64,000 nucleotides of DNA from an uncultured Gemmatimonadaceae bacterium (GTDB taxonomy: Bacteria > Gemmatimonadota > Gemmatimonadetes > Gemmatimonadales > Gemmatimonadaceae): contig CAWHHI010000020.1 of the NCBI GenBank assembly GCA_963829055.1, positions 160,001-224,000 on the forward strand, given 5' to 3'. A model generated the notes under the pieces. It was not told the DNA's origin. It worked only from the letters and a program-made list of their open reading frames with translations, and searched no databases. The translations under genes were made by a program, and so were the position numbers. This document shows positions 25,314-48,010 of the stretch, piece by piece; position 1 is the first letter of the stretch, and the number at the start of each line of letters is the position of its first letter.

Positions 25314-25505
25314 CGCTTATTGTATTGCGTGCATGAAACCACGCTGCGGCTTGACCATTCAACTGCGACACGCGCCCGCCGTTTAACACAGCACGATGCG
25401 GCGAAGCGCCGTAGCGCGTCGGGAAGTGCCGTCCACGCAACGTAGTTCGACGTCGGCCACACGACCTCCCGTGTTAGGCGGCGAGGCTCGCCGTCTAACA
25501 CAATG
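25314..25505 (-). other. attI-like platform, copy 1 (no adjacent integrase)
   Basis: Collinear homology to 47792-48010; the methyltransferase cassette joins it at G|TTAGAA (25314). Confidence 0.8.
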
Positions 25506-25561
25506 ACGTCAGAGCACGCTGACTGGACACATCCGGCGAGGCCACTCCGCCTCGTGACTAC

Positions 25562-26833
25562 CTAACGCGCCACACCACCCGAGGCCGCGCCGAGCCCCGC
25601 CGCTCGACCCGTCGCCCACGCCCAGAAGAAGTTGTAGCCGCCCACCGGACCGAACGCGTCGAGCACCTCGCCACAGATGTAGAGACCCGGATGCCGCCGG
25701 CTCTCCATCGTCCGCGGATGCACCTCCCCGAGATTCATTCCGCCACCCGTCACCTCGGCCTTCTGGTATCCCTCGTCGCCGCTCCACGGCAGCGGACCCG
25801 CAACCAACATCGCGATCAGTCGCGCGCGCTCGTCGCGCCGCAACTCCGCGAGCAACCGCGTGGGGTCCACGTTCGCGAGCGTCAACAACACCGTCGCGAG
25901 ACGGTCAGGCAACACCGCGCGCAGCACGCCGGCGACGGCACGGCTCCCCTGAGGCCTCAGTGCGTGCTCCCACTCCGCCGCGCCGAGCCCGGTCCACTGC
26001 ACGGCCACACGCGCCGGTTCCGGCGGCACGGTCGGCTCGGCGCGCGAGCGCACAGCGACGTGCGACACGTCGAGCACCGCCGGACCGCTATAGCCGCGAT
26101 GCGTGAACAGGAAGCCGCCACTCGCGGTCGCACTGCGCCCACCGAGCTCGTGGCGCGCCGAGAGCGTGACGCGCAACGACACCCCACTCAGCTCCGCGAA
26201 CGGCGAATCCGTCGCGGTGAGCGGCGTCAGCGCCGCGTAGACGGGCTGCATCGCATGGCCAAGCCGCGCCAGCTCTCGGAGGCCGAGTCCCTGGCTGCCC
26301 GTGTTAGGCACGGAGAGTCCGCCGGTCGCGACGATCACGGCGTCGGCGTCGACCGGCGTGCCGTCATCGAACTCGACGCGCCATCTGCCATTTACCGGAG
26401 CGAAGCCCGTGACCACCGTGTTCATCCGGAGCGTCGCACCCGCTCGTGCAGCGTACGCGAGCAGCCCGTCGCGTACGTCACGCGCCTTGTTCGAGCGAGG
26501 AAAGAGCTTCGACGATTCCGGCTCTTCCGCCAGCGGCAGCTGGAGCTCGGTCTCGAAGAACGCGATCTGTTCCGCGAGGGGCCACGCACGAAGCATTTTG
26601 CGAAGGATGTTCGGCGACGAGTCGGTCACGAAGCGCGACTCGTCGAGGTGCATGGGGAGCACGTTGCAGCGACCGCCGCCGCTGATGAGAATTTTCCGCC
26701 CGCCGTCGCGCGTGCGCTCGAGCAGGATGGTCTCGGCGCCAGCACCCGCGGCGAAGATCGCGGCCATGGAGCCGGCCGCGCCCGCGCCGATCACGACGAC
26801 GCGCCGCGGCGCCTGGGGGGTGGGTGGCGGCAT
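25562..26833 (-). CDS. HI0933/BaiN-family flavoprotein
   Basis: IGAGAAG, GRKILISGGGRCN, LFTHRGYSGP, GEVLD...GGYNF. Confidence 0.93.
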   Translation of the reverse strand: MPPPTPQAPRRVVVIGAGAAGSMAAIFAAGAGAETILLERTRDGGRKILISGGGRCNVLPMHLDESRFVTDSSPNILRKMLRAWPLAEQIAFFETELQLPLAEEPESSKLFPRSNKARDVRDGLLAYAARAGATLRMNTVVTGFAPVNGRWRVEFDDGTPVDADAVIVATGGLSVPNTGSQGLGLRELARLGHAMQPVYAALTPLTATDSPFAELSGVSLRVTLSARHELGGRSATASGGFLFTHRGYSGPAVLDVSHVAVRSRAEPTVPPEPARVAVQWTGLGAAEWEHALRPQGSRAVAGVLRAVLPDRLATVLLTLANVDPTRLLAELRRDERARLIAMLVAGPLPWSGDEGYQKAEVTGGGMNLGEVHPRTMESRRHPGLYICGEVLDAFGPVGGYNFFWAWATGRAAGLGAASGGVAR

Positions 26834-26881
26834 GACAGCGAATGCTAACGGAGATACAGGGACTCTGACATCTTTCACGTA

Positions 26882-27694
26882 ATGAATCCACCAGACAAAC
26901 GCGATCCTCGCGCGCCACAACGAGCCGCATCGAAACGAGCCTCACCGAGGCACGGCCGGAGAGCCGGGCACCGTGAGCATCGCTCGTGCGCTCTCGAAGC
27001 TGGGGTTCTGCTCGCGCGCGCAGGGCGAACGGCTCGTCGAAGCAGGGCAAGGTCCGCGTCAACGGCGCGATCGTTCGCAGCCAGTCGGTTCGCGTGCGAC
27101 CGGAGCGCGACGTCATCGAGGTGGACGGCACGCGCGTCAAGCACGTCGCGCACGTCTATCTCATGCTCAACAAGCCCCGTGGTCTCGTGACGACCACCGA
27201 CGACCCGCAAGGTCGCGCGACGATCTACGAGTGTCTCCGCGACGCGTCGCTCCCGTTCGTCGACTCCCGTCGGGCGGCTGGACAAGGCGAGCGAGGGACT
27301 GCTGCTGCTGACGAACGATTCGCGCTGGTCGGCGCGGCTGCTCGATCCCGCGTCGCACGTGGACAAGGTCTATCACGTGCAGGTACGTACAACGGATCCG
27401 CAGGCCATCGTCCACCGCATTGCCGACGGCATCGTCGAACCCGAAACGGGAGAGCGGCTCGAGGTCAAATCGATCTCGCTGTTGCGCACCGGCTCCCGCA
27501 GTGGCGCGTGGTTCGAGGTCGTGCTCGACGAAGGGAAGAATCGACAGTTGCGACGCATCTTCGCCGCGGTCGACGTGCCAATTCAGCGACTCGTACGCGT
27601 GTCGATTGGACGATTGGCGCTCGGCGACCTCGCGAAGGGTGCATGGCGGATGCTGCGCCCGGACGAGGTCGATCTCCTTGGAGGAAAAGCGTGA
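26882..27694 (+). CDS. rRNA pseudouridine synthase (RsuA/RluB family), frameshifted
   Basis: S4-like RALSKLGFCSR, LNKPRGLVTT, GRLDKASEGLLLLTND, EGKNRQLRR. Confidence 0.85.
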
Positions 27695-28410
27695 CGAGCC
27701 CGCAGACGTTGACCGCCGTGCGGCGTCGCTTGCAGGAAGCGGGCGATCCCGAAGATGCCGTCTTCCTTCAACGCTTCTTCAAGACCGGCCCAGGACAGTA
27801 CGGCGAAGGCGATCGGTTCCTCGGCATTCGCGTTCCGATGACGCGAACGCTCGCGCGCGAGTTCGCCGATCTGCCGCTGAGTGACATCGAAGCACTGTTA
27901 CACGACAAGTGGCACGAAGCGCGGTTGCTCGCGCTCGTCCTCCTCACCAACCGGTACGCGCGCGCCGACGCGGCCGAGAAATCACAGGTGTATCGCACGT
28001 ATCTCGCGAACACCGACCGTATCAACAACTGGGATCTCGTCGACCTCTCGGCGCCGGGCATCGTCGGCGCGCATCTCGAGACGCGGCCGCGCAAACCGCT
28101 CGACACGCTCGCGAAGTCGAAGAGCCTGTGGGAGCGGCGCATCGCCATCGTCGCCACGTACCACTTCATCCGGCGCAAGGAATTCGACGACACGCTGCGG
28201 ATCTCGACGACACTGCTCGGCGACTCCCACGACCTGATTCACAAGGCGGTGGGTTGGATGTTGCGCGAAGTCGGCAAGCGCGACGAGCGCGTGCTCGAGG
28301 GATTCCTCGAGAAGCACGCGCTCGAGATGCCTCGTACCGCGCTCCGCTATGCGATAGAACGAATGTCGCCTGCCAAGCGGAAGCACTTCATGAGCCGCAG
28401 TACGGCCTAA
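27691..28410 (+). CDS. DNA alkylation repair protein (AlkD-like)
   Basis: FFKTGPGQYGEGDRFLG, NNWDLVD, HDLIHKAVGWMLRE. Confidence 0.92.
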   Translation: MTSPQTLTAVRRRLQEAGDPEDAVFLQRFFKTGPGQYGEGDRFLGIRVPMTRTLAREFADLPLSDIEALLHDKWHEARLLALVLLTNRYARADAAEKSQVYRTYLANTDRINNWDLVDLSAPGIVGAHLETRPRKPLDTLAKSKSLWERRIAIVATYHFIRRKEFDDTLRISTTLLGDSHDLIHKAVGWMLREVGKRDERVLEGFLEKHALEMPRTALRYAIERMSPAKRKHFMSRSTA

Positions 28411-28609
28411 CGCGGAGCGCTCGGCCCGTGCTACCGGTCGGCCGCGTCCGACGCGTCGTAGGCGATCCAGCCGTCGAGCGTATAGGTCGCCGTGTTCGTA
28501 GCCGTCAGCTCCACCTGATACGGATTCGAAAAGGCCTCGGCGGCGCTCGAGGCGTCTGACGTTGGACCACCGTTGTTCATGGGCATCCACTCCTCGTCAG
28601 ACGTGTGTG

Positions 28610-46932: not shown

Positions 46933-47187
46933 CAGCCCGAATGGCCAACCGAGTACGCCGAATCGGCAGTGCAGGCAACCTGGCAGGTGTGACCATCAGG
47001 GGTAATGATCGTGAGGGTGATGGGTGACGCGATTGGCGGTCGTCCGTTGCCAGTTTCGGCTGCTGCGTGGGCGACTTTTGACGCCACACCGTCAGCCGAT
47101 CCCGCCGGTACCTGTCGGGAAGCGGAGGCCCGGGGAGGGTGAATTCGAAGAGGAGCATCGGCCGAACTGTGAGGAGCCGACTGCTCC

Positions 47188-47279
47188 GCCTAACGCCCAA
47201 GTTGAACTGCGAGCGGATCTCATAACGCGAGCGCGGCGAGCTACCACAGACCGCTCGTCGGCTCCGCCGAACGTTAGCC
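47188..47279 (-). other. attC site
   Basis: GCCTAACgcccaagttgaactgcgagcgg...ccgctcgtcggctccgccgaacGTTAGCC. Confidence 0.88.
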
Positions 47280-47428
47280 GGTGCCGTGCGTCGGATGCTC
47301 GACGCCCGGCACCCGCGCGAAAGTTGATAGCGGAATACATTACCGATCGGGTTCGGCCGTCTTAGACGACCCGTTGCCCAATACGGTACACGTAGTCGGA
47401 CAGGTGCCTCCCGACAGTCAGCGCGTAG

Positions 47429-47743
47429 TCAGGATGGCCGTACTGCTGTCGTGCGGGCCCAACCGAGGATCTCAGCGCCCACCACGATGCTCCGAACTTG
47501 GTGGTGCTGAAGGAAGTTGAGGATCTTCGCTCCGATCGCGACGTCGTCGCGCACGTCGACCATTTCAGAGAACCACTTCTCCATCTCGCGCACCTTGCCG
47601 CGGTCGTCGTGGGCAATGCCGACGGCGACTTTGCTGGCACGCCGGTTATCCGGCCCGTAAAACGCGATGGTCCCGATCGGATAGCCTTGGAACCCACGCT
47701 CGGCCTTGCGCTCCAGACGCTCTCTCGGCGTTCGATCAGACAT
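47429..47743 (-). CDS. Conserved hypothetical protein, first cassette (C-terminus possibly disrupted)
   Basis: RGFQGYPIGTIAFYGPDNRRASKVAVGI. Confidence 0.7.
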   Translation of the reverse strand: MSDRTPRERLERKAERGFQGYPIGTIAFYGPDNRRASKVAVGIAHDDRGKVREMEKWFSEMVDVRDDVAIGAKILNFLQHHQVRSIVVGAEILGWARTTAVRPS

Positions 47744-47791
47744 GACCCGCGACCCTCGAACTGGGATTCACAGTCAGTGCATCCGGCTCAA

Positions 47792-48010
47792 CGCTGTTTG
47801 TATTGCGTGGGAAGGACCATCTTGCGGCTTGACCATTCAGATGCGACACGTCCCTGCCGTCTAACTCGGCTCAATGCGGCGAGGTAGCGCGTCATCGCTG
47901 GAAGTACCGTGCTCACAATGTAGTGCGACATCCGCCCCTAGGGCTCCTGTGTTAGGCGGCGAGGCGTGCCGCCTAACCCAATGGCGGCCGAGCATCGTTT
48001 CTGAGGGTCA
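47792..48010 (-). other. attI-like platform, copy 3, at the 3' end of intI
   Basis: Lies between the intI stop and the first cassette; junction G|TTGAGC at 47792. Confidence 0.8.

Follow-up and report, generated by a model that had tools for sequence, protein, structure and literature searches.

Copies of an attI-like platform element head integrase-less cassette arrays in a Gemmatimonadaceae genome

The platform element and the integron integrase

The window analysed here is a stretch of 64,000 nucleotides from an uncultured Gemmatimonadaceae bacterium (assembly GCA_963829055.1, source genome G000; contig CAWHHI010000020.1, referred to as C20, positions 160001-224000). It carries integron gene cassettes on its minus strand in three arrays (arrays 1 to 3), each headed by a copy of the same platform element, and the only integron integrase gene (intI) of the genome stands at copy 3. 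Arrays 1 and 2 have a platform but no integrase, as a first-pass annotation of this DNA had proposed. All of the features are listed in Table 1.

A nucleotide profile was seeded with the three window copies (c1, c2 and c3) and searched against the entire 7.78-Mb assembly. It recovers the seed copies at E-values of 4e-59 to 4e-66 and finds three further full-length copies outside the seed (c4, c5 and c6); the genome holds six copies, not the three originally counted, and only c3 is beside intI. The other five are called orphans here. Five of the six are on C20, all on one shared strand and spanning 103 kb. The alignment of c1, c2 and c3 is collinear over 245 columns with a mean column identity of 80%, and with profile E-values far past chance the earlier description of three diverged collinear copies stands; that a profile of three copies finds three unseeded ones also disposes of the concern that their alignment might be no better than chance.

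Pairwise identities among the six copies are 56-73%, with 0-5 indel events summing to 0-6 nt per pair, and the distance from any landmark to the crossover differs by no more than 2 nt, so that the near-absence of indels despite divergence holds for the whole set. The landmarks originally described are all in place (a TGCGG block from +31, an internal TAAC ending at +73 and a terminal CTAAC ending at +185/+184/+185), and TGCGGCTTGACCATTCA reads the same in copies 1 and 3, as had been claimed. The extent of about 190 bp given for the element is too short, however: the conserved module reaches about 20 nt past the terminal CTAAC, up to a GAGCA/TGCTC block, for a length of about 215 bp. The crossover of copy 3 is at 47792|47791, and no open reading frame (ORF) of 70 aa or more spans the platform of copy 1 in any frame.

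The predicted IntI scores 266 bits against TIGR02249, barely above the cut-off of 265, and aligns over its full length with the V. cholerae IntI structure 2a3v (E 3e-52). The alignment spans the IntI-specific segment (W..LFP....RRHH), LRHSFA, GH and the catalytic Tyr; both the specific segment and the catalytic residues expected of the subfamily are thus present. A tblastn search of the genome with IntI finds one copy, the runners-up having 26-35% identity over shorter stretches and fitting other tyrosine recombinases; the best of them are Xer-like, at 30%. IntI homologues are found in 40 of the 61 related genomes, and the relatives seen in a metagenome contig collection are all distant loci in metagenome-assembled genomes, with 41-44% identity. 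Because intI is on the cassette strand the integron has a reverse layout; 14 of the 20 related intI loci that were fetched have GTTAGGC or GTTAGAC within 330 nt past the intI 3′ end on the same strand, a pattern that fits such a layout across the group.

A platform lies directly 3′ of intI in four genomes: G000, the sister species G001 (locus L028) and G003 (L034), and, from another genus, G136 (L065). The IntI proteins of the latter three are 55-63% identical to that of G000. Where intI of this clade occurs the module comes first after it (4 of 4 loci), and since all four genomes have it after the intI stop codon and ahead of the first cassette, it can by position be taken as the attI region of this integrase clade, which supports the first-pass annotation in regarding the platforms as attI sites. 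The position is that of c3 and its counterparts in G001, G003 and G136, and by definition not that of the five orphans. All of the 23 copies found in eight genomes terminate in GTTAG at one alignment column.

Table 1. Platform copies, integrase gene, cassettes, attC sites and neighbouring features; positions are those of the window unless a contig is named.
Feature	Position	Strand	Remarks
Platform copy c1 (copy 1)	25314-25529	minus	putative orphan attI copy, 3′ of HI0933-like flavoprotein gene
Platform copy c2 (copy 2)	33872-34087	minus	putative orphan attI copy, 3′ of BTAD/TPR regulator gene
Platform copy c3 (copy 3)	47792-48006	minus	probable attI region of the integron itself, between intI stop codon and first cassette
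Platform copy c4	C20:120029-120237		orphan; profile match outside seed, E 2e-24
Platform copy c5	C20:105001-105216		orphan; profile match outside seed, E 5e-22
Platform copy c6	C17:248579-248788		orphan; profile match outside seed, E 1e-14
Box B/box A palindrome of copy 1	25473-25499		GTTAGGCGGCGAG..CTCGCCGTCTAAC as read on plus strand; equivalents in all six copies
Box C of copy 1	25377-25387	minus	GTTAAACGGCG in cassette sense; direct repeat of box A; -73
intI	48008-48985	minus	325 aa; sole integron integrase in genome; co-oriented with cassettes
intI stop codon	48008-48010	minus	1 nt from copy 3
First cassette after copy 1	24444-25313	minus	methyltransferase ORF 24571-25227; attC 24444-24546
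Second attC of array 1	23880-23981	minus	
Array 1 cassette between attCs 23880 and 24444			HicA-toxin-family ORF 23987-24199 (70 aa); partner ORF 24209-24433 (74 aa)
First cassette after copy 2	32694-33871	minus	cyclase-family ORF 32824-33822; attC 32694-32797
Further attC of array 2	31800-31863	minus	E 4e-3
Further attC of array 2	30543-30647	minus	E 4e-12
Further attC of array 2	29211-29312	minus	E 2e-21
Further attC of array 2	28961-29055	minus	E 3e-4
First cassette after copy 3	47186-47791	minus	104-aa ORF 47429-47743; attC 47186-47281
Further attC of array 3	45714-45816	minus	E 2e-17
Further attC of array 3	45099-45193	minus	E 2e-16
Further attC of array 3	42787-42841	minus	E 0.03
attC without platform at head	3141-3196	minus	
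attC without platform at head	9722-9824	minus	
attC without platform at head	10537-10626	minus	
attC without platform at head	13530-13647	minus	
Core-type GCG|TTAGGY upstream of c1	25559-25565		49 nt before TGCTC block
Core-type GCG|TTAGGY upstream of c4	C20 ~120282		48 nt before TGCTC block
Core-type GCG|TTAGGY upstream of c5	C20 ~105290		81 nt before TGCTC block
CCG|TTGGAC upstream of intI-linked c3	~48046-48052		within intI 3′ end; 52 nt before TGCTC block
Gene upstream of c1	25562-26920	minus	HI0933-like flavoprotein
Gene upstream of c2	34118-36238	minus	BTAD/TPR regulator; stop codon 30 nt from platform
Upstream of c4			150-aa ORF, then DUF2200 and ABC-F genes
Upstream of c5			amidohydrolase gene
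Upstream of c6			divergent MacB-type permease gene

Anatomy of the platform and the cassette arrays

Read in the cassette sense, the module consists of a TGCTC(G/T)G block, box A, an inverted box B, CGCCGCA, box C and the crossover GCG|TTAG. Box A (GTTAGACGGCG, at -185 from the crossover) is repeated directly by box C (similar to GTTAGACGGCG, at -73), and box B (CGCCGCCTAAC, at -169) is inverted relative to A. Across all six copies the distances are -185/-184 for A, -169/-168 for B, -90 to -92 for CGCCGCA and -73 to -75 for C. By analogy with attI1, boxes A, B and C and the terminal box are putative IntI-binding sites. A TAnnAT-like hexamer about 9 nt ahead of the crossover was noticed by eye alone.

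Box B is able to pair either with A, as a 27-nt hairpin, or with C. The B/C pair is a conserved RYYYAAC...GTTRRRY pair of 11-13 bp with about 85 nt between its arms, and it closes the outer stem in 12 of 12 folds. The interior between B and C folds no better than shuffled sequence (z from -2.75 to +1.0 in these 12 folds), and a local attC covariance model run at E<=10 with filters off has zero matches over any platform; the outer pair is the sole attC-like part of the module. The earlier statement that the platform lacks attC architecture is therefore correct as regards the attC model and the overall folding, but has to be modified for this one conserved pair.

We consider it very improbable that the module is a structured RNA, regulatory leader or terminator at gene ends, unrelated to recombination. 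Such an element would agree with the location of most copies for which an upstream gene is called, at the 3′ end of a co-oriented gene, and with the GC-rich A/B hairpin at the module start. Nevertheless, Rfam at its gathering threshold has 0 matches in the whole window, in the consensus fold of four copies the covariation term is positive and compensatory pairs are few, with no convincing covariation, and scanning the three window copies for promoters and terminators reveals neither within a platform. The downstream edge moreover coincides with cassette junctions, and four integron core-type boxes are present.

The attC sites were identified by a simple hairpin scan and then by a covariance model built from seven of the sites found. 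There are 15 matches with E<0.05 on the minus strand of the window, forming a family of the approximate form CCTAACG ... CGTTAGG with strong hairpins; as expected of integron attC sites they are imperfect RYYYAAC ... GTTRRRY palindromes, co-oriented and one per cassette. Array 1 (24444, 23880) and array 2 (32694 to 28961) each have at least two attC sites with no intI nearby, the sole intI being 23 kb and 14 kb off, respectively. Tools that search for attC only would call them attC clusters without an integron integrase (CALINs), as had been foreseen.

The junction expected of attI is one at the G|TT of a GTTRRRY box, with a cassette start that complements the cassette's own R'' sequence. It is seen at c1 (11 nt of complementarity, window 24538), c2 (10 nt, window 32789) and c4 (9 nt), and is weak at c3, c5 and c6. 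For the window copies, complementarity between cassette start and attC had been described for all three; it is confirmed for copies 1 and 2, but at copy 3 it is imperfect, the expected word being interrupted by two single-base insertions.

The HicA-family ORF of array 1 and the 74-aa ORF adjacent to it (window 23987-24433) look like a toxin-antitoxin cassette, of a kind common in chromosomal integrons. The attC sites without a platform at their head (3141-13647) are set apart from array 1 by plus-strand MacB/FtsX permease genes; within the first of them, window 3143-3194 is a perfect 52-nt palindrome with attC-type ends (GCCTAACG...CGTTAGGT), far shorter than the other attC sites.

Orphan copies in this genome and its relatives

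Copies 1 and 2 lie directly behind the HI0933-like and BTAD/TPR genes, the chromosomal genes after which the first-pass annotation had placed them. A co-oriented attC follows four of the five orphans, about 0.5 kb (c4), 0.8 kb (c1), 1.1 kb (c2) and 1.55 kb (c5) downstream. Past its crossover c6 reads TTAGGTGGGCACAAG, which resembles GTTAGGCACAAAG inside the platforms of G003 and G004.

Orthologues of the BTAD gene with 71-73% amino acid identity are present in the sister genomes G001, G002 and G006; none has a platform downstream and the homology with G000 ends exactly at the stop codon, from which it follows that copy 2 is specific to the G000 lineage. In the ESM Atlas, the cluster nearest to the BTAD protein has Gemmatimonadota as its most frequent phylum, which is no more than a lead. 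The three sister loci (L051-L053) have CGTTAGGCG in common at 2-3 nt from the BTAD stop, and after it a small co-oriented gene that G000 lacks. For the HI0933-like gene, a search of the six sister genomes at E<=1e-60 found no orthologue. Empty sites were sought at two loci: at the BTAD locus of G001, G002 and G006 the platform is absent but the downstream flank is unrelated to that of G000, and at the GntP locus of G000, compared with L046, the flank is unrelated as well. With such unrelated flanks no exact insertion junction can be defined.

The sister genomes were scanned with a sequence model of the six copies, 150 candidates being scored per genome. At least three copies are present in G001, at least six in G003, at least four in G004 and at least one in G005 (14 copies), with none among the scored candidates of G002 and G006. 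Two of the 14 listed copies have intI within 1.5 kb upstream, and the other 12 are orphans. A co-oriented attC lies within 1.5 kb downstream of ten of these 12 (one is partial, at a locus edge); of the remainder, one has no attC and one is at a contig end and not assessable. The orphans here (4 of 5) and in the sister species (10 of 12) thus for the most part head arrays, the check that had been proposed for genome-wide matches. The genes upstream of the sister-species orphans code for a gamma-glutamyltranspeptidase, an amidase, a GntP permease, a GAF-cyclase, a glyoxalase, a methyltransferase and an amidohydrolase-ankyrin protein.

Had relatives always carried an intI at each copy, the orphans would have appeared as recent deletion products. 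As given above, intI accompanies 2 of 14 copies, and in G004, which has at least four platform copies with arrays, neither a protein search nor TIGR02249 found an integron integrase (its assembly is 92% complete). With stricter filters the module was also found in 9 of 120 further genomes, of other genera of the family; of the copies there, L065 is beside intI and L064 and L066 are orphans with downstream attC matches.

Two orphan pairs of G003 and G004 are at orthologous positions, and in both the first cassettes differ, in answer to the further question of whether arrays at orthologous platforms vary. L030 (G004) and L044 (G003) share an upstream methyltransferase gene and the platform, with 83% identity over about 1,030 bp; after the platform come unrelated segments of 437 and 857 bp, each with its own ORF and attC, and from the 3′ end of the first attC the two loci can be aligned once more, with 81% identity across some 590 bp. 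The bases at the start of the L030 cassette (TTGGGCGGACG) complement the R'' of that cassette (CCGCCGCCCAAC). L029 and L035 likewise share an upstream glyoxalase gene and the platform (85% identity), followed by unrelated cassettes. Judged from these comparisons, the turnover is the pattern that would be expected from cassette insertion at orphans already established without an adjacent intI.

The 23 copies from eight genomes align collinearly. A maximum-likelihood tree was made of 22 of them, omitting one truncated by a contig end. The six copies of G000 form one clade (support 99/96), the nine of G003 and G004 a second (100/100), inside which pairs group by locus across both species, and those of G001 and G005 a third (95/96). 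Since the clades follow lineages, either each lineage multiplies its own copies or the copies evolve together with the integrase that is resident there.

Comparison of L041 (G003, 1501-1714) with L039 (G004, reverse complement, 1505-1719) shows 83% identity over 214-216 nt, from the first conserved block (GATGCTC) to the crossover, between flanks that are unrelated on both sides, and the module is accordingly sharp-edged at both ends. An extra core-type CG|TTRGR site lies 28-139 nt upstream in 11 of the 23 copies (160-nt search span), where about 2 would be expected from background. These sites were considered as a second crossover of the module and rejected; though enriched, they occur in only 11 of 23 copies and lie off the homology edge.

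The orphans could be relics, descended from an ancestor with several intI-attI units whose integrases were later deleted, leaving inert fossils with leftover arrays. We regard this possible origin as unlikely, although several genomes of the family have 2-3 intI genes, copy 2 matches copy 3 through the position of the intI stop codon (CATGACCCTCAAAATCATGCTC versus CGTGACCCTCAGAAACGATGCTC), and integrase loss is named as one source of CALINs in the accessible text of PMC4889954. No intI remnant was found by tblastn (E<=1e-3) upstream of the five orphans here or the 12 in relatives; instead, intact unrelated genes end 30-120 nt from the module, and the homology boundary is identical in all copies, which independent deletions would not yield. 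The single clade formed by the six G000 copies indicates one attI lineage, and both the kept spacing at 56-73% identity and the different first cassettes at orthologous orphans argue against inert fossils.

Another explanation takes the platform for an unusual attC or for a cassette-like module without coding content, in which case the region of about 100 kb would be one giant array with some attI-ended "cassettes". It has in its favour the 11-13-bp pair of CGCCGCCTAAC and GTTAGACGGCG (B and C) forming the outer stem in every fold, the upstream CG|TTRGR sites, the module edges, sharp on both sides, and the five co-oriented C20 copies within 103 kb, among arrays; attI-ended cassettes are also known from integrons of classes 1 and 2 (PMC12901181, in part). 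The module, however, is always first after intI where intI is present, the attC model finds no match to it and its interior does not resemble a hairpin. Upstream of copy 2, the BTAD block is chromosomal and common to three platform-less sister species, the sister-species orphans are spread over many contigs beside transporter and enzyme genes, and none of the 12 has an attC in the 1.5 kb upstream. We therefore hold a cassette-like origin to be quite improbable.

Interpretation and relation to known systems

We propose that the element of about 215 bp is probably the attI region of a reverse chromosomal integron, and that its orphan copies are extra insertion points served in trans by the single IntI. 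IntI would bind the GTTAGRCGGCG-type boxes, of which A and C are direct repeats and B is inverted, at -185, -169 and -73 from the crossover, and would recombine the folded attC of circular cassettes at the G|TT that closes the module. The same reaction would proceed at the orphans as at its own attI, that is, in trans. If so, every orphan gives cassettes a further point of entry, and the integron, with its several heads, is a distributed one; it seems to be spread over several landing pads. Service in trans is suggested by the comparison of the sister species, and IntI may be active at the orphans at the present day. The first cassettes would presumably be expressed by read-through from the upstream gene.

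Several observations weigh against this proposal. Simple attI recombination does not account for the sharp upstream edge of the module, and no sigma-70-type promoter was found by the promoter scans in any of the three window copies. Cassette footprints are weak at c3, c5 and c6, with no complementarity seen at the last two, and behind c6, which may be an empty site, there is a PadR/MacB operon and no attC. Platforms of G004 persist without a detected resident integrase. The evidence for turnover is drawn from sister species and not from the source genome, and homologous exchange by way of the conserved sequences of platform and attC could have produced the turnover as well. Sites and clusters of attC without a platform occur at C9:90-93.6 kb, C9:208-210 kb, C10:178-190 kb and C20:890.5 kb as well as at window 3141-13647, and an array can therefore exist without one. 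Finally, the attC model was built from sites of the window itself and is circular for its seven seeds, though not for the other eight.

More speculatively, the module itself might be copied to new loci, typically the 3′ ends of host genes, where it would seed arrays, and one IntI, even a non-resident one, might run a multi-headed integron. On the same supposition the amplified word GCGTTAGGC (about 1,000-2,000 copies per genome of the genus, described below) could offer IntI thousands of secondary sites, and could even allow ordinary genes to be taken up or turned into cassettes. We are doubtful of this wider scheme.

The attI1 site of class 1 integrons, a double-strand site of about 65-70 bp, has a simple site L-R and accessory direct repeats DR1 and DR2 bound by IntI1. 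The platform resembles it in lying beside intI, in its crossover at the G|TT of a GTTRRRY box, in its upstream direct repeats of the core motif and in the kept spacing of its boxes. Unlike attI1, it is about three times longer, has one inverted box that forms a palindrome with the first box, lies 3′ of intI and not between divergent intI and cassettes, and is present in six copies per genome. The layout agrees with that of reverse (inverted) chromosomal integrons such as the one of Treponema denticola, with intI and cassettes on one strand and attI downstream of intI; here too, intI and the cassettes are co-oriented and the putative attI is 3′ of intI. For reverse integrons of this type, no additional attI copies remote from intI have been reported to our knowledge.

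Arrays 1 and 2 are similar to CALINs and to single attC sites lacking integron integrases (SALINs) in being groups of attC remote from intI, and differ from them in being headed by a recognisable attI homologue. According to the text of PMC4889954, as far as accessible, most integrons have no known attI and none that could be searched for; the search for attI is confined to exact matches for classes 1-3, and a split integron or integrase loss is given as a possible origin of a CALIN. According to the portion available of a second study (10.1101/2022.09.11.507474), 95% of CALINs are not near intI pseudogenes, and insertion at short attG sites is proposed. The origins given in the accessible parts of these two sources (integrase loss, rearrangement and attG insertion; PMC4889954; 10.1101/2022.09.11.507474) do not include a resident orphan attI. 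The orphans are like attG sites in that cassettes lie outside the integron proper at what would be a double-strand site, with action of an integrase in trans as suggested here; attG sites, as described in that portion (10.1101/2022.09.11.507474), are short (about 18 bp, with a GWT core) and unrelated to attI, whereas these are full attI homologues of 215 bp kept across species.

Cassettes ending in attI (of the delta-attI type) are described in the accessible text of PMC12901181 from within clinical arrays. They share with the platforms the presence of more than one attI-derived site per array region, and such sites of mobile integrons are recombined by IntI (PMC12901181). They are, however, partial or duplicated attI1 or attI2 in one short clinical array, whereas the copies here are full modules at separate chromosomal loci behind host genes, with orthologous positions kept in sister species. 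No account of full-length orphan attI copies in chromosomal integrons came up in a literature search that had most subscription journals outside its scope.

As interpreted here, the lineage supplies an attI family that is recognisable by sequence across genera, and evidence of many orphan attI copies that head arrays and show cassette turnover at orthologous positions. Orphan attI would be a fourth, testable origin for integrase-less cassette clusters, and suggests that one integrase is able to serve several pads, each possibly driven by the transcription of a different host gene. The approach of modelling the conserved stretch beside intI and scanning the genome with it offers a recipe for attI families elsewhere.

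The word GCGTTAGGC, which in G000 is the consensus of both the attC R' end and the attI crossover (window examples are at 25558-25566, 32789-32795 and 3143-3194), is abundant in the genome as a whole. There are 975 + 1,001 copies, compared with 69 + 65 of a reversed control word. GTTAGGC occurs 5,630 times, 6.3 times the expectation from base composition, and the near variants GTTAGAC, GTTAGCC and CTTAGGC are at 0.04-0.1 times expectation. No longer consensus surrounds GCGTTAGGC, and its flanks have codon periodicity; at 537 occurrences it provides the TAA stop of a likely gene, the number of TAA-terminated long ORFs in the genome being 617 under a slightly stricter ORF filter. The word is present in 978-1,992 copies in all seven genomes of the genus, including G002 and G004, which have no IntI match. 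Among other sampled genomes of the order (the tallies include the unpublished genome G013), G014, of another genus, has 2,337 copies and G010 and G048 are intermediate with 208 and 144; the remaining 21 have fewer than 20, under their controls. This abundance resembles that of words of the uptake-signal type, and that it is also the integron core word could be a coincidence or not.

Overlapping long ORFs in different frames are present at window 20544-22933, both with MacB_PCD and FtsX domains, and at 52424-54117, both with PD40 repeats, which suggests frameshifted genes or assembly errors. Part of window 24400-26400 is contained in 20 soil, rhizosphere and sediment sequencing runs.

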